Positions 35,203 through 60,678 of a stretch of 64,000 nucleotides of DNA are shown here, piece by piece. This DNA is from an uncultured bacterium (lineage in GTDB: Bacteria; Patescibacteriota; Minisyncoccia; Phycocordibacterales; CAIRYW01), in NCBI GenBank assembly GCA_963766885.1, contig CAVYBO010000002.1:365521-429520 (forward strand). Reading direction: 5' to 3'. The notes beneath the pieces were generated by a model. It worked only from the letters and a program-made list of their open reading frames with translations. It searched no databases and had not been told where the DNA came from. The position numbers and the translations under genes were made by a program. Each line of letters starts with the position of its first letter. The stretch's first letter is position 1.

Positions 35203-36926
35203 TTATGCCAGAGTGCTTATTTCTTCAAAAGGAATTTGATGATCAAGGGCTTTGATGATTGCGTCTTCTTTCATTGTGAGCATTCCCTCTTTTCTAACTA
35301 CTTTCCAAATTTCAGTTTCAACAGGACTTGCAAGAATAACACTTTCCAATTCTCTACTCATTTTAAAAACTTCAAAGACAGCTAGCCTTCCGTGAGTGCC
35401 CTTAGGACACTCAGTAGTGGGTGTCGCCTCAAGCACCGTTCTCTTTTTTGACAAATCGATTTTAGAATCTTGAGGTAAATCCACAAACTGTTTGTCTATC
35501 ATTACTTGAATACTTCCTTCTACAGGGATCTCTTTGGCACCTTCAGGACATATTTTTGCAACAAGACGCTGCGCCATAGATAAAATCAAAGTCGGAGCGA
35601 TAAGATATGGGTCGATGCCCATATCCACAAGTCTTGGAATTACGCCGATTGCATCGTTGGTGTGAATTGTCGAAAATACAAGGTGACCAGTAAGCGCGGC
35701 CTGGATTGCAAGAGCTGCGGTTTCCTTATCTCTGATTTCTCCAACCATGATTATATCCGGATCTTGACGAAGTGTGGTACGCAACCCATTGGCAAAGGTA
35801 TAGTCTATCTCCGGTCTGATTTGCGATTGGCTCATTCCTTCAATGCTGTATTCCACAGGATCTTCCAAAGAAAGCACGTTATTGGATTCTTTATCTACTT
35901 CTTCTATCATGGAATACAGCGTTGTGGTTTTTCCAGATCCCGTAGGCCCAGAAATCAAAATCAATCCGTAAGGCTTGTGAATGGCTTCTTTTACTAATTC
36001 CATATTTCTTGGCGATAAATCCAGATCCTTCAAAGATTTAACACCTCTTGAGTCTGGTCCAAAATTCTCATCACAACCTTTTCTCCATAATATGTTGGAA
36101 ATGTTGAAACACGAAAATCAATTTTTCTACCGTCAATTCTTGCGCTGAATCTGCCGTCTTGAGGCTTTCTTTTTTCATCAAGCTTCATATCAGATAGAAT
36201 TTTTATTCTTGCCACAACAGCATTGAGAACTTTTGCAGGTAAAATAAGCGATGTGTGCAAAACGCCGTCCAACCTGAATCTAACTCTGACCTTATCAGCC
36301 ATTGGCTCTACATGCACATCAGACGCTTCACCTTCGATGGCATAACGAAGAATTGTGGCAACAATTTTTTTAACTGGCGCATCTTCTATAATATTTACAG
36401 AATTTATTTTTTTGCCGACTTCCTCGTCCTTAATATTGACCATCTCTCTTTCTTCGTCTGAAAGATCATCTTCTAATTCAGAAAGAGCTTTTGTGACTTC
36501 TCCAGATAGACCTTTGTAAGAAAGCATGGCTTTTTCATAGTCCTCCTTTGAAATAAGGAAAATTTTATAAGGAACATTGTTTTTTGAGGTAATGAAGTTA
36601 ATCGCGTCGCGGGCATCCAGATTTTCCGGGTCTACTACTCCAACTTCGAGAGCGCCGGCTTTTAAGTCTAAGGGCAGTATTTTGTAATAGTTTGCAGAGT
36701 CTTCTGGAATAAACTTCAAAATTTCCATCGGTATATTAGGGCTAGACAAGACTCTGGTCGGCACACTCATATATTGACCTTTAGCTTCAAGAATGTCTTT
36801 ACTGCTTACTCCGTATGATTTTAAAATATCTTCAAGTTGTTGGGGTGAAGCGGCTTCTGATTGTGCTTTTTTTGCGTCTTCAGAGGTTATTACCCCCTTT
36901 TTTAAAAGAATAGTTAAAAAATCCAT
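35203..36926 (-). CDS. pilB: type IV pilus assembly ATPase (GspE family), interrupted by a 1-nt indel in an A/T run (36032-36034)
   Basis: The N-terminal ORF has the GSPII_E N-domain and ends in RILDQTQEVLNL. The C-terminal ORF has EAIHKPYGLILISGPTGSGKTTT. Adding one T restores EVLNLLKDLDLSPRN. Confidence 0.85.
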
Positions 36927-49270: not shown

Positions 49271-49693
49271 ATGTACAATTTACCTGTTATTTTACAATAT
49301 CTGTGGGCGTTGTTTTGGTCCAAGTTTCTGGGTCCTTATCAAACTGACGAAGAAAAAATTCAGACGACTCTACGCGAGCTTCTTCTTGAGCTGGTCAGAC
49401 TGAAGGAAATTGATATTGGCGATGCTTCCCCTGAAGGAGACTCAATAGCCAAGGAACATTTCAAACATTTGGTGGAACTGCAACTCCAAAGCCACAGAAC
49501 GTGCCACCTTTTGTGCGAGAAGCTTTACAAGCTTCTCGACGAAGAGGTGATTCCCACAACTGGCGGTTGCAGGCTAGATACGTGGCTTCTGTGCCACTTC
49601 AAAGAAAACCCCGAGGATTTACCCACCCAGAGAATGGTGAAAGTAGCCAAAGACCATTGGCAACCAGAATTTCATCATGCTGCCACCGTTTAA
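49271..49693 (+). CDS. hypothetical protein
   Basis: It is a 140-aa ORF with no motif. Confidence 0.35.
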   Translation: MYNLPVILQYLWALFWSKFLGPYQTDEEKIQTTLRELLLELVRLKEIDIGDASPEGDSIAKEHFKHLVELQLQSHRTCHLLCEKLYKLLDEEVIPTTGGCRLDTWLLCHFKENPEDLPTQRMVKVAKDHWQPEFHHAATV

Positions 49694-49731: not shown

Positions 49732-51999
49732 ATGGGACAAGATTTAATTTCTTTTTTTAAAAAACTAACAGACAACCAAAAGCAAGCGCTTCAAAAAATG
49801 CGGCTCAAAACTTTGCGCGATTTGCTCTATCACTTCCCCACAAGATACGGCGGCACAGAAAAAGCAGTATTGATTTCTGCACTTCAACCAAAAATGCAAG
49901 CCACGATTTTTGGCAAAATTTCTAAAATAAAAATCAAAAAAACTTTCCGCACTCGGATTCCAATGACTGAAGCGACAATTTCTGATGATACAGATTCTGT
50001 CAAGGCTGTTTGGTTTAATCAGACATACATCGGCAGAATGTTTCAGGAAGAGAGCTTGGTGAGAATCGAAGGAATTGTTTCCGAAAATAAATCAGGTTTG
50101 TTTTTCTCCAATCCGCATATAGAAAAAGTTTCCAAAATTCCAGAAATTGTTGGGGATTCGCTTTTTGGCGAAGACGGCGAAGAGCACTCGTTGTATCCAG
50201 TCTATCAGGAATCCAAAGGCATAACCTCAAACTGGATTTATCACGCGTTAAATAAAATTTTTGCTTCAGAATTTTTTCAAAAAATTGAAGATCCACTTCC
50301 TCAAGAAATACTTCAGAAATACAGCCTGCCTTCCCTCAAAACAGCGCTTGTTTGGATACACACACCAAAAAAATCAGACGATGCGCTGGCAGCCAGAAAA
50401 CGTTTTGCTTTTGAAGAAGTTTTTTTTATCCAGCTACAAAATGAGATAGAAAGGAAGAAACAGAAAAAAGAAAAGTCGTTTGTTATTGATACCAAAGCAA
50501 TCGAACCTGAAATAAAAGATTTTGTCCAAAGGTTTCCCTTTTCTTTGACGCTGGCGCAAGAAAAAACCACTGCAGAAATTTTGAAAGATTTATCAAAGCC
50601 ATATCCGATGTCTCGCCTGCTTGAAGGCGACGTTGGCAGCGGCAAAACAGCTGTGGCAGCTACTACGGCGTTTGCAATCGTCGAAGGAGGTAAACCGACG
50701 GTGTCACAGGCGACTTCGCCAACGGCGAACGAAGACTGTGATCCGGAGGTTATCAAGCCTCAGAGTTACGCGCTTCGTTTTGCTCCGCAAAAGTCGCGCG
50801 TAACGTCTTCGGCTTTCACCGGTCCGCTTCAAGTCGCATACATGGCACCCACAGAAATTTTGGCAAAGCAGCACTTTGAATCCTTTATAAAGCTTTTCAG
50901 GCACCTGCCGATTTCAATCGGACTTATCACAGGCTCAGGTTGCAGAAAATTCCCATCCAAAGTCTCACCAAACGGCTGGACAAATATTTCTCGCAATCAA
51001 TTCCTCAAATGGGTTTCAAACGGTGAGATTTCAATTATCATAGGCACCCACGCTTTGATTCAAGAATCTGTAAAATTCAGAAACCTGGCTCTTGCAATCA
51101 TAGACGAACAGCATCGCTTTGGCACCCGAAGCCGCCAAAAAATCACCAAAAAAGATCCTCGGATTCCCCACCTGCTTTCAATGACTGCCACTCCGATTCC
51201 CCGCACGCTTGCTTTGACGATTTACGGAGACCTAGATTTGTCGCTACTTGATGAACTGCCTGAAGGCAGGCAAAAAACCAAAACAGAAATTGTCTTGCCA
51301 AATGAGCGGGAAAAAGTTTACGAAAAAATAAAATCAGAAATAAATTCCGGCAGACAGGCTTATGTCATTTGTCCCAAAATCAACGCTCCGGAACTAGGGC
51401 AAGAAAACATCATCAATTCAAAATCAGTCAAAGAAGAAGCCAAAAGATTAAAGAAATTTATTTTTCCGGAATTTGAAATCGGCACAATGCACGGCAAAAT
51501 GACTCCAACCGAAAAAGATAAAACTATGGAGAAATTTGAAGCGGGCAAAATTGATATTTTAGTTGCCACGTCTGTAGTGGAAGTCGGAGTAAATGTGCCA
51601 AACGCCACAATGATAATTATTGAGGGCGCGGAGCGTTTTGGACTGGCGCAGCTTCACCAGCTGCGGGGACGCGTGCAAAGAAGCGAGAAAGAATCTTTTT
51701 GTTTTGTGTTTACCGAAAGTGAAAGTGAAAAGACACTTCAGCGTCTAAAAGCATTAGAGACAGCAAGAAACGGATTTGAACTTTCCGAACTTGATCTCAA
51801 ACTCCGCGGTGCAGGAGAACTCTCTGGCGGCAAACAATGGGGACTCTCCGACTTGGCGATGGAAGCGATAAAAAATATCAAAATGGTGGAAGCAGCCCGC
51901 TTGGAGGCCAAAGAAATTGTTGCCAAAAACAGCAATCTCAAAAACTATCCTTTTCTTGCAAAAGTGATAGAAAACAAAAAAGAAGTGCATTTTGAATAG
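49732..51999 (+). CDS. recG: ATP-dependent DNA helicase RecG, with a ~45-aa GC-rich in-frame insertion after Walker A
   Basis: It has the wedge domain (LRDLLYHFPTRYGG), Walker A (GDVGSGKTAVA), DEQHRFG and helicase C motifs. Confidence 0.85.
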   Translation: MGQDLISFFKKLTDNQKQALQKMRLKTLRDLLYHFPTRYGGTEKAVLISALQPKMQATIFGKISKIKIKKTFRTRIPMTEATISDDTDSVKAVWFNQTYIGRMFQEESLVRIEGIVSENKSGLFFSNPHIEKVSKIPEIVGDSLFGEDGEEHSLYPVYQESKGITSNWIYHALNKIFASEFFQKIEDPLPQEILQKYSLPSLKTALVWIHTPKKSDDALAARKRFAFEEVFFIQLQNEIERKKQKKEKSFVIDTKAIEPEIKDFVQRFPFSLTLAQEKTTAEILKDLSKPYPMSRLLEGDVGSGKTAVAATTAFAIVEGGKPTVSQATSPTANEDCDPEVIKPQSYALRFAPQKSRVTSSAFTGPLQVAYMAPTEILAKQHFESFIKLFRHLPISIGLITGSGCRKFPSKVSPNGWTNISRNQFLKWVSNGEISIIIGTHALIQESVKFRNLALAIIDEQHRFGTRSRQKITKKDPRIPHLLSMTATPIPRTLALTIYGDLDLSLLDELPEGRQKTKTEIVLPNEREKVYEKIKSEINSGRQAYVICPKINAPELGQENIINSKSVKEEAKRLKKFIFPEFEIGTMHGKMTPTEKDKTMEKFEAGKIDILVATSVVEVGVNVPNATMIIIEGAERFGLAQLHQLRGRVQRSEKESFCFVFTESESEKTLQRLKALETARNGFELSELDLKLRGAGELSGGKQWGLSDLAMEAIKNIKMVEAARLEAKEIVAKNSNLKNYPFLAKVIENKKEVHFE

Positions 52000-52954: not shown

Positions 52955-53016
52955 ATTACTCGAACGGTGGGGAATGACTCTTCACCAAAAAACCAAGATC
53001 TTTGAGGAACAAACCT

Positions 53017-53382
53017 ATGAATGAAAACCTGTACGCCATTGTCGCCCTGCTCATTCTGAGCCTGGTGATCACCCTGATCCGTTTGCCGTTTAGCGAAGAA
53101 AAGCGCGGGCGGCTGAAATGCTATGGCATCGGGGTACTGCTCGTATCCCTGGTCATAGGCATGTACTACTTCGCTGGATGGTTCACCCATCTGTCGTGGG
53201 TAGAACATTTCATGCCCGACCATATCGCAAGCATCATCGACGGCATCTGCGCGATTGTTGGCATATTTGCGGCGCTTCTGTACTTCGTCTGTATGTTCGG
53301 ATGGATCATCGGCGCCGGAATGTGCATCTTCTTCGCGCCGCTGGCTGACGACTTCAGCATCTGGAGTGAATTCAGCAGGTAG
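53017..53382 (+). CDS. small 4-transmembrane protein encoded in GC-rich, enterobacterial-style codons (foreign cassette)
   Basis: It has CTG-rich codon usage and GC around 52% against a background near 33%. It has a GAGGA Shine-Dalgarno and an intrinsic terminator. Confidence 0.55.
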   Translation: MNENLYAIVALLILSLVITLIRLPFSEEKRGRLKCYGIGVLLVSLVIGMYYFAGWFTHLSWVEHFMPDHIASIIDGICAIVGIFAALLYFVCMFGWIIGAGMCIFFAPLADDFSIWSEFSR

Positions 53383-53476: not shown

Positions 53477-53497
53477 CTATGCGTGTGGAGGGGCTCG
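53477..53497. repeat. 20-nt duplicate of the tRNA-Ile 3' end (att-like)
   Basis: tatgcgtgtggaggggctcg is identical to 53618-53638. Confidence 0.8.
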
Positions 53498-53619
53498 GTC
53501 ACAGATAAATTTCTGCTGAAATTTTCTTCGACCCCACCTCGCGCCGTCGCGCTCCGGCTTTCGAGCCGACTAACGCTTTGCTTCGCAAAGCTAGTCAGCG
53601 CATACTCGCTTCGCTCGTA

Positions 53620-53692
53620 TGCGTGTGGAGGGGCTCGAACCCCCGACCGGACGAGTATAAGTCGTCTGCTCTACCAACTGAGCTACACACGC
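53620..53692 (-). tRNA. tRNA-Ile (TAT)
   Basis: It has a perfect acceptor GCGTGTG/CACACGC, anticodon loop CTTATAC and T-loop TTCGAGC. Confidence 0.8.
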
Positions 53693-56185: not shown

Positions 56186-56207
56186 CATCCAAAGAAACAA
56201 ATGTTGT

Positions 56208-56245
56208 CCCCCGAAAATTTTGAAAGCTTTCAAAATTTTCGGGGG
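56208..56245 (+). terminator. perfect 19-bp-arm palindrome between smpB and ssrA
   Basis: cccccgaaaattttgaaagctttcaaaattttcggggg. Its 3' arm overlaps the tmRNA 5' end. Confidence 0.6.
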
Positions 56246-56636
56246 ATGCTTGGCATAGACATTTGAAATTTCTTTGCTGTGCGCAATAGAGAATTCTCGA
56301 AATCTCTTAAACTCTCGAGAAAACTCAAGTGCTAAAGCACAGAAAGTCGCTTCTCCATATTTTGGAGCAAACGATTTCGCATTCGCTTTTGCTAGAGCGT
56401 AAGCTCGCAAACCGGATGCCATCCTTCCAGTTCCCTTCTCTCGAATTGGACAGGGTGTTATAAGATGAGAATAAGCTTGCGGATTTCTTCGCCCGCAAGA
56501 CAAAAATCTTAGAAGATCGAAAATAATGCGTTTCGTTTTGCTTTGAGCATTATTTTTTAAATTTCAAGCAAAAACACATTGCGTAGAGTCATCAAAGAAA
56601 CTCATTTGCACGCGGGTTCGATTCCCGCCATCTCCA
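56242..56636 (+). ncRNA. ssrA: tmRNA (ssrA)
   Basis: The 5' GGGGATG pairs with the 3' CATCTCC. The 3' end is tRNA-like (T-arm GCGGGTTCGATTCCCGC). A candidate tag ORF reads GCA AAC GAT TTC GCA TTC GCT TTT GCT AGA GCG TAA (ANDFAFAFARA*). It lies directly downstream of smpB. Confidence 0.7.
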
Positions 56637-57334
56637 CACTACAGGAATATTTCTCCTCAAATTTAGTTTATACATTGGTAACAAATAGTTTCGAGAGGTT
56701 CTAACCGTCACTTTTAAGCCATAATCGAAAACTATACAGTTTATAGACCAATTCTAATTGGAGCTTATTCTGTCTGCTTTAAAGAGGTTCTAACCAAAAC
56801 AAAGTCATAATCAAATATATTGTGTATAACGGCACTTGACTAACTTATACAAAAAGTATAAGCTTAGTAGGTACTTTGAAAAATCAAGGCAACTGGATAG
56901 TCATTAAAGACGGTTATTTCAGGCAGAATAAAAACTGCCTCAACTTTCCTCTATAGGTACTAGTAGGAAAAGAAAATTCACCGGCACATCTGTGCATTAA
57001 TGTCTCTATTTACAAGGCTCATATATTTTTGGTCATAAGCTCAATTGATTCATGGCGTGTCAATGTCGTGTCATCTTTGCGAGTCAGGAATTTTTTTTGG
57101 TCAGAATTGGATGGGATAATTATAGAGATAGTTATATGGTAGGGGTTACTCAACGATCGAATGGTCAGTGAGTTTCACAACAAAACGCTACCACCGAAAC
57201 AAATGACCATTCAATCTGCGAGTCACCAATTAATAGAAAGAATTAATTCCCAAATAAACAAAATATGAAAAATTATTGGTATTCGTCACACAACAGTATT
57301 GCTTTGAGCGTTTTGTATGTAAGGGAGGCAAATT

Positions 57335-57412
57335 ATGGTAAGACAGCATCTAATCCGAATTCTCCAGATTTTAGTCTGGATTTTAAGGATTGTTCTGGAC
57401 ATCATAAGCTAG
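57335..57412 (+). CDS. small hydrophobic ORF (25 aa) with a strong Shine-Dalgarno; candidate leader or small peptide
   Basis: AAGGGAGG sits 6 nt before the ATG. The peptide is MVRQHLIRILQILVWILRIVLDIIS. The complement of the Shine-Dalgarno (gcctccctt) lies right at its stop. Confidence 0.3.
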   Translation: MVRQHLIRILQILVWILRIVLDIIS

Positions 57413-57437
57413 CCTCCCTTTAATCGTATTCTATATT

Positions 57438-57761
57438 ATGAACAACTTTCAAGATTTACTAAAAAAAATAAGAAATAAAGCTGACCTGACTCAAGAAGAT
57501 TTAGCAAAAGCTCTTGGAGTTTCAACTGTACTTATTTCTATGATTGAAACGGGACAAAAACAAGTTTCGAGAAATTTTATTGAAAACCTAGCTGAAAAAT
57601 TATCAGTTCATCCTAGTTCAATCACACCTTTCTCGTTTATTGAAAAAGATATGGATATCAAAAAGCTTTCAGCTCTTGAGCGAAACTTAATTAAAGCTGG
57701 AAGTAAATTCCAAGATTATTTAATTACTACGAAAGCGAAAAAACTAAGAGAGTATGTCTAA
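57438..57761 (+). CDS. XRE-family (Cro/C1-type) HTH transcriptional regulator
   Basis: It has the HTH LTQEDLAKALGVSTVLISMIETGQ. Its stop overlaps the RT start, indicating translational coupling. Confidence 0.75.
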   Translation: MNNFQDLLKKIRNKADLTQEDLAKALGVSTVLISMIETGQKQVSRNFIENLAEKLSVHPSSITPFSFIEKDMDIKKLSALERNLIKAGSKFQDYLITTKAKKLREYV

Positions 57762-60428: not shown

Positions 60429-60678
60429 GTTAGTAGGATTAGTATACCAAAACCAATATTGTTTTATAGCTTTGCTCCTTTGTTTTTAGCGTATATACTT
60501 ATTTCACAACCAAATATTCCGAAGACCTAACCCTTGAAAACCTCAAGGCACGGTCACAAATCGACGTGAATAAAAAACCTATCATTAGGGCGTTCACGTC
60601 GTTATACAGGGAAACTTGTATAGGAGCTTCGGCTCCCCTAGTGGTAGGCTTTTTGTTTCTCCACTAGGACACACGATT

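Follow-up and report, generated by a model that had tools for sequence, protein, structure and literature searches.

GC-rich inverted hairpin modules inserted in frame into a permissive loop of recG in a member of the Paceibacteria

REPIN or BIME elements consist of pairs of inverted repetitive extragenic palindromic (REP) sequences, imperfect palindromes in which a short conserved motif stands beside variable stems, and they are mobilised by RAYT proteins. Yeast mitochondria carry GC clusters that form GC-rich hairpins, and GC-rich hairpins also occur in the bypass elements of some mitochondria. Coding palindromes whose two arms both encode conserved protein have been described in mitochondrial genes of Nematomorpha (PMC6649704), and Rickettsia palindromic elements (RPEs) are ~100-150-bp palindromes that lie in frame in unrelated, often conserved genes and are translated in a manner compatible with the protein fold (PMC10969869). 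Hairpins can also result from template-switch (quasipalindrome) mutations, which in one step generate perfect stems, multi-base compensatory changes and inverted copies of nearby sequence (PMC8794818, PMC8604942). Here we analyse a GC-rich segment carried in frame by the recG gene in a 64,000-nt stretch of contig CAVYBO010000002.1 (hereafter the window) from an uncultured bacterium. We consider it very likely that the segment is palindromic DNA of non-coding character, accommodated and very probably translated in a disordered surface loop that is a hot spot of insertion, and that it is not a known RNA family, intron, intein or artefact. A limited literature search found no description of in-frame palindromic inserts in genes of the candidate phyla radiation (CPR).

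The recG product (Table 1) matches the RecG structures of Thermotoga maritima (1GM5, E=4.6e-122) and Escherichia coli (9WM0, E=1e-92), and its homologs place the host organism within the Paceibacteria/Parcubacteria of the CPR. Both alignments break off at residue ~312-321 and restart at 364-366, leaving residues 322-365 (nt 50695-50826, 44 aa) without a counterpart in either solved structure. This segment lies between the helix that follows Walker A and the strand of motif Ia, with GDVGSGKTAVAATTAFAIVEG before it and QVAYMAPTEILAKQH after it, a context identical to that quoted in a first-pass annotation of the window, which had reported an extra frame-preserving segment here. That segment is real, and its ~44 codons can be refined to 117 nt when the limits are set against the basal loop of the host's own clade, RPKGQNFGNL (usual reading ...T-T-R-P-K-G-Q-N-F-G-N-L-Q). 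So delimited, the inserted DNA is bounded by 'KP', corresponding to 'RP' of the clade, and by 'FTGPL', corresponding to 'FGNL', and the net gain over the basal loop is 37 residues. The reading frame is kept over exactly 39 codons free of stops. The closest RecG proteins, 68-72% identical, lack the insert.

The inserted DNA is built of two hairpin modules, H1 and H2, which stand in opposite orientation and are separated by 10 nt. Aligned without gaps, H1 agrees with the reverse complement of H2 at 28/50 positions and with H2 in direct orientation at 14/50, whereas randomisations that preserved both the pairs and the composition gave 14.6 +/- 3.2 identities (P about 7e-4). An nhmmer search of the window likewise matched the insert to its own reverse complement (E=8.5e-6). 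Sequence identity between the modules is 56%, and both have the same two 7-nt blocks, GCGACTT and AACGAAG, around the internal loop. At eight of the 18 stem pairs H1 and H2 differ, always in both bases of the pair, so that all 18 are still paired. The window contains GCGACTT-N8-20-AACGAAG just twice, in each case within the insert and on opposite strands, whereas 100 shuffles indicate that none would be expected.

Table 1 Features of the recG locus and of a related inverted-repeat element. Positions refer to the window, except in the last row, where they refer to the recG locus of the relative L091.
Feature	Position	Strand	Basis
recG coding sequence, 755 aa	49732..51999	+	List of open reading frames; matches to 1GM5 and 9WM0; homologs annotated as RecG of Paceibacteria/Parcubacteria
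Walker A / motif I codons, GDVGSGKT	50626..50649	+	Translation; invariant in 58 aligned RecG proteins; directly upstream of the insert
Inserted DNA proper, 117 nt = 39 codons (TVSQATSPTANEDCDPEVIKPQSYALRFAPQKSRVTSSA)	50698..50814	+	Alignment with 120 RecG homologs and 86 loci; GC 57%; pLDDT <50
Hairpin module H1, imperfect ~50-nt palindrome with internal loop	50697..50746	+	Minimum-free-energy fold; H1/H2 consensus; covariance model 75 bits on +, 11 on -
H1 conserved core, GCGACTT-N11-AACGAAG	50710..50734	+	Core pattern scan
Hairpin module H2, inverted copy of H1	50757..50813	-	Covariance model 78 bits on -, 20 on +
H2 conserved core, GCGACTT-N11-AACGAAG	50773..50797	-	Core pattern scan
Motif Ia codons, AYMAPTEILA	50836..50865	+	Invariant A369-A378 in RecG alignment; strand 367-372 in model; directly downstream of the insert
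ACGCRGACARA element sites in L091	2094-2131, 2694-2731, 3140-3193, 3420-3521, 4106-4154		

Base composition sets the segment apart from its surroundings. GC content over 50686-50830 is 57.2%, compared with 41.9% in recG (40.9% with the insert removed) and 37.8% in the window; the contrast reported in the first-pass annotation (~55% in the insert) is therefore real, and its figure of ~33% for the gene was wrong. Only 0.15% of the 145-nt windows of the stretch are equally GC-rich, the others being tRNAs and an island at 53.0-53.45 kb. Across the three codon positions GC is flat within the insert (0.57/0.59/0.59), unlike in the remainder of recG (0.49/0.35/0.39), and no other 44-codon window of the gene reaches its GC content at third codon positions (GC3). 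Since GC3 is as high as GC at first and second positions (GC1 and GC2), amino-acid composition does not explain the richness in GC.

The minimum-free-energy structure consists of two hairpins and a closing stem over 117-132 nt. Internal inverted repeats had been reported, and their arms are present at 50765-50780 and 50789-50804; outer arms at 50692-50716 and 50791-50815 are 72% complementary and form terminal inverted repeats. At -60.6 kcal/mol (z=-4.2) the fold was matched in stability by 0/200 dinucleotide shuffles, and the minus strand folds similarly. Within recG the insert is the sole strongly structured part (z about -4.7, against |z|<2.6 elsewhere), which supports its description as structured. 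The accompanying suggestion of an RNA element embedded in coding sequence fared less evenly. No Rfam family reached its gathering score over the insert (the best E-values, 0.48 and 3.4, were to irrelevant families) and no Rfam intron model matched it, whereas the structure of the hairpins does seem to be conserved, and they may have a role at the level of the nucleic acid.

The loop that accommodates this insert is a hot spot of insertion among the Paceibacteria. We measured loop length in 86 loci as the distance between GSGKT and AYMxPTE (L numbers below denote recG loci of relatives, and P numbers their RecG proteins). This distance is 38 residues in 53 of the 86 loci, shorter in three and longer in the rest; across the clade it ranges from 30 to 75, and the basal loop length is found in 149 of 193 RecG proteins. 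Additional residues, 4 to 26 in number, are present at the loop in 23 of 77 parsed species-representative Paceibacteria genomes (30%), nearly always directly after the Arg-Pro codons, and the insert of the window (+37) is the longest observed. Alignment with orthologs thus gave a twofold answer to the question of whether the insert is peculiar to this genome: no ortholog carries it, and lineage-specific insertions are in general frequent at the site itself.

Most of the larger of these insertions form hairpins, and 5 of the 12 inserts of at least 8 aa are more stably folded than 97.5% of the windows of the same length in the gene that carries them. In L003 (P0010; 1974-2020, z=-10.6) the insert is a perfect palindrome whose 21-bp arms enclose a loop of 5 nt. 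L001 (P0044; 3089-3154, z=-4.6) has two perfect hairpins, one of 9 bp and one of 8 bp, L032 a long imperfect hairpin (z=-3.3) and L037 a perfect 9-bp stem. The signal is weaker in L087, L004 and L005, and the inserts of L019, L027, L069 and L054 have none. The insert of P0044 is present on 10 contigs of several sources.

Other variants of these recG genes were recorded alongside. A loop variant six residues longer, RPFDxAQGKPQ, occurs in L020, L039, L050, L056, L084 and P0024, whose kin otherwise have an empty site; L056 is its sole carrier among nine close relatives, and this distribution suggests exchange or recurrent origin. Perfect in-frame palindromes were also seen in two other RecG loops, in L064 (3046-3077, 32 nt without spacer) and L084 (1841-1877, 15-bp stem), and at 2482-2517 of L084 an insert has a 13-nt arm that matches the adjacent native codons exactly in reverse complement. 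Long perfect palindromes also occur between the genes of these genomes; we considered them as products of the same process and rejected them, as they are ordinary bidirectional terminators with A- and T-tracts.

Two of the hairpin inserts have homologs in lineages that are not sisters of their carriers. The palindrome of L003 has a homolog at the identical site in L089 (P0122) and degraded forms in P0129 and P0008, and the insert of L001 has a homolog in L092 (P0132). On a neighbour-joining RecG tree (read for its topology, without bootstrap values) the carriers are non-sister, and the sister proteins P0009, P0015, P0130 and P0027 have an empty site that reads exactly RPKGQNFGNL. Third codon positions of L001 and L092 are 42% identical gene-wide, with synonymous sites at saturation, yet their inserts share identical unpaired blocks of 15 and 11 nt. 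Both hairpins are retained in the two loci while the inner stem sequences are altered on both sides, with three compensated pairs computed for hairpin 2 and three more found in hairpin 1 by manual reading of the folds. Between L003 and L089, 11 of 15 third positions agree inside the palindrome, compared with 50% gene-wide. The inserts of the relatives are thus hairpins with a patchy distribution, conserved as structures.

Furthermore, true multi-copy inverted-repeat elements sit in frame in recG of this group. Inverted arrays of the 11-nt unit ACGCRGACARA in L091 (P0129) flank an in-frame PD-(D/E)XK 'GxxExxY' domain (PF13366) in the interval between RecG motifs II and III. The same gene carries the unit in a ~100-nt insert in another loop, arranged as two terminal inverted repeats around a spacer, as a solo copy, and as a copy just past the stop codon, and a further copy is found 3' of recG in L038 (3708-3721). 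In-frame GxxExxY domains of ~150 aa, located between motifs II and III, occur in RecG of some Taylorbacteria-like relatives (P0124, P0127 and P0129).

As for the protein, an AlphaFold model that draws on 58 homologs (mean predicted local distance difference test score, pLDDT, 76) renders residues 323-361 as coil with pLDDT <50, between a confident helix at 305-319 and a confident strand at 367-372. In the model the insert thus departs from the fold as a disordered stretch where the first helix of RecA-like domain 1 ends, in agreement with the earlier proposal that it is tolerated in a loop. The 39 codons are very probably translated, since they contain no stop and all of the ~30 inserts found at the site in other genomes are likewise in frame and open.

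Based on the foreign composition, the inverted two-module architecture with its conserved core, the patchy homologous inserts set against exact empty sites, the structural conservation and the multi-copy element of L091, our preferred but tentative reading is that the insert is a selfish hairpin element, RPE-like or miniature inverted-repeat transposable element (MITE)-like, residing in frame. We hypothesise that two inverted copies of a ~50-nt hairpin module of non-coding origin would have landed in frame in the permissive loop of RecG helicase domain 1, and that the inserted segment would be translated as a floppy linker of 39 residues. Such an element would survive in an essential-type gene only where a length that is a multiple of three, freedom from stops and the loop position leave a working protein. 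The hairpins would matter to the element itself, which might be recognised as folded DNA or RNA, and such recognition would keep the pairing and the core motif while the stems drift. The window's own copy may thus have come by transposition or homing and not have been built in place.

Compared by features, the insert resembles RPEs in that it is of similar size (117-132 nt), has a palindromic fold, is in frame and open, and lies in a surface loop. It differs in that RPEs are multi-copy (44 copies in R. conorii), have a conserved peptide and reside in Rickettsia, whereas here one copy was found in 64 kb, the peptide has no homolog, the host belongs to the CPR and the element consists of two inverted hairpin modules; copies in unrelated proteins that have a conserved peptide in common, as RPEs do, were not seen. 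With REPIN or BIME elements it shares two inverted imperfect palindromes, a short spacer and a conserved short motif next to variable stems. REPINs, however, are extragenic, RAYT-dependent and present in tens to hundreds of copies with near-identical REPs, unlike this intragenic insert, single in 64 kb, with modules 56% identical. The terminal inverted repeats typical of MITEs are present here and a convincing target-site duplication is not. The palindromes of Nematomorpha and the GC clusters of yeast mitochondria are comparable as inverted repeats or GC-rich hairpins inside translated genes of AT-rich genomes. Unlike the coding palindromes of Nematomorpha, that of the window is an extra disordered segment, absent from orthologs, in a CPR bacterium and not an organelle.

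Several results weigh against a selfish element. Searches of the window with blastn-short and nhmmer returned only the insert and its own reverse complement, and a 60-mer allowed up to three mismatches there matched only itself. A covariance model of H1 and H2, applied with filters off to the window and with default filters to the 86 relatives' loci (441 kb), gave no further match below E=0.19, and the core pattern GCGACTT-N-AACGAAG is absent from 88 relatives' loci. Exact 19-22-mers had no match in genome, metagenome and viral collections, not even to themselves, the source genome being outside those collections; the palindrome arm of L003 likewise had no exact match in metagenomes. Phage records gave only chance 33-nt blastn matches to GC-rich mycobacteriophages (E=0.5), and plasmid records gave nothing. 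The ~135-nt sequence delimited in the first-pass annotation therefore has no second copy in the window, in the 441 kb of relatives' loci or in the exact-match scans. This absence is weak evidence, because the source genome, a 596-kb contig, was examined over these 64 kb only. A phmmer search with a 48-aa peptide against 1.84 billion representatives found two spurious repeat-protein matches only. A reading of 50686-50830 showed no convincing direct target-site duplication, and a 4-nt ACCG repeat, although present, would as a target-site duplication disrupt the frame. No GxxExxY homolog was found in the window, other transposases not being searched for, and no obvious RAYT candidate was seen, the Pfam scan covering six neighbouring ORFs. 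The earlier label 'mobile' accordingly stands only in part: for the window's copy it lacks the support of a second copy, and it is plausible from the patchy homologous inserts of the relatives and from the multi-copy element of L091.

The remaining points on that side come from two relatives and lead to an explanation by mutation in place. The segment GGCCGTTTGCAGA inserted in L084 reproduces exactly, in reverse complement, the native TCTGCAAACGGCC that lies 10 nt downstream of it, and the left arm of the 32-nt zero-spacer perfect palindrome of L064 plausibly encodes native PTPSLA; these are the signature, the latter plausibly so, of template switching. Under this explanation, template switching or snap-back synthesis would make a hairpin, a second inverted duplication would double it, and switches from arm to arm would keep the stems paired, with no mobile element involved and the loop merely tolerating the result. 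Template switching is a documented creator of perfect stems and of multi-base compensatory changes (PMC8794818), every insert family has a unique sequence, and the element of the window is hierarchical, with hairpins within an inverted duplication. The flanking codons, Pro-Lys ... Phe-Gly (CCNAAA...TTTGGN), moreover often form a small native inverted repeat. However, no local template is evident for the window's insert, whose direct or inverted matches to the flanking 300-400 nt are not significant (P about 0.09-0.6), and the same applies to the inserts of L001, L003, L037 and L087; a derivation of H1 from the Walker A codons (17/22 similarity) was also considered and discarded as not significant (P about 0.09). 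A composition of 57% GC in a 38% GC genome is foreign to the locus, and independent origins in place cannot yield the same sequence in non-sister lineages, so that many precise losses would be needed. We consider an origin in place somewhat unlikely, though it is the main rival of the selfish-element reading.

The compensated pairing, both of H1 with H2 and between orthologous inserts of distant lineages, could instead reflect a cis-acting structure in recG mRNA or DNA that benefits the host, such as a pause, processing or stability signal kept by host selection, and the synonymous sites of the inserts are indeed more conserved than gene-wide. Copying from arm to arm can, however, imitate compensatory change (PMC8794818). 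Most recG genes of the clade are without an insert (53 of 86 loci and 149 of 193 proteins have the basal loop), sister lineages manage without it, the inserts at the site are unrelated in sequence and shape, and no Rfam family matches, all of which makes a host function improbable. An ordinary lineage-specific expansion of the loop, with hairpins and GC as by-products of a Pro/Ser/Thr/Ala-rich linker, would suit the variable loop length of the clade, the inserts that have no hairpin signal and the predicted disorder of the peptide. It leaves unexplained a GC3 equal to GC1 and GC2, a fold with z of -4.2 to -4.7 relative to dinucleotide shuffles, the inverted relation of the modules and the enrichment of hairpins in large inserts (5/12 below the 2.5% tail), and on these grounds it was already disfavoured and has little chance of being correct. 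Least probable by far are an artefact of assembly and an intron, intein or translational bypass through which the segment would be lost from the finished protein. The source is a metagenome-assembled genome, and the bypass elements of some mitochondria do carry GC-rich hairpins, but the insert has exactly 39 stop-free codons and lies at the insertion hot spot of the clade, and the inserts of other genomes at the site are equally open, that of P0044 recurring across contigs. At 117 nt the segment is also far below the size of a group I or II intron or an intein, it has no match to an Rfam intron model, and there is neither an intein-sized ORF nor intein junction residues.

A broader version of the selfish-element reading, speculative and in our view unlikely, is that Paceibacteria of the CPR harbour an undescribed class of small hairpin elements, each family with its own core and covarying stems. 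Such elements would pass from one lineage to another, settling in the same permissive loops of recG and other conserved genes, would be translated there as disordered linkers and might be mobilised in trans by in-frame PD-(D/E)XK (GxxExxY) nucleases like the one that inverted repeats flank in recG of relatives; the insert of the window would then be a decayed but still structure-constrained member. If these are selfish hairpin elements, the CPR would be a second case beside Rickettsia, and unrelated to it, in which very small genomes let palindromes colonise conserved genes in frame, and the elements would provide a direct route for the growth of protein loops. If template switching is responsible instead, the RecG loop would keep a natural record of how this mutational process works in bacteria that have not been cultured. 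In both cases a single site displays, across hundreds of genomes, palindromes that are young and perfect, others that have decayed, and exact empty sites, and the origin and fate of coding palindromes are therefore directly testable. A caution also follows for annotation, as GC-rich structured stretches within CPR genes are not necessarily RNA genes.

The only other GC-rich anomaly of the window is the island at 53 kb. An exact 20-nt direct repeat is present there at 53478-53497 and 53618-53637, one copy being the 3' end of a minus-strand tRNA gene (53620-53692), and is adjoined by an ORF at 53002-53382 (+; 126 aa, 55% GC) that is membrane-like, lacks a Pfam match and has its own terminator. 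Repeat and ORF together suggest that a small island was integrated at a tRNA gene and has left this remnant. Other structured intragenic stretches, at 21.7, 25.7, 35.8 and 11.1 kb, were inspected and are unconvincing as inserts. At 35.8 kb, within an ORF on the minus strand (35203-36033), a 15-nt inverted repeat (35841-35855 and 35910-35924, 93% complementary) has arms that encode the conserved motifs GKTTTLYS and EDPVEYSIE of a secretion-ATPase-like protein, and it may be due to chance or may be a coding palindrome within conserved sequence.

Further structures lie around the tmRNA gene (56242-56639), whose 5' end is abutted and overlapped by a 20-bp perfect palindrome (56207-56246). The ~1.1 kb past this gene (56640-57750) has no ORF of at least 110 aa and no Rfam match at gathering score; its structured stretches include an inverted repeat with arms at 57144-57167 and 57204-57227, as well as a window of low folding energy at 57321-57440. 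A LOOT RNA (RF03000, 72 bits) is located at 60524-60636. Immediately 5' of recG, an ORF for a hypothetical protein (49271-49693, +, 140 aa, no Pfam match) bears a coding palindrome at 49505-49549, with a perfect 10-bp apical stem and 21-nt arms that are 81% complementary, encoding HLLCEKL-Y-KLLDEEV.

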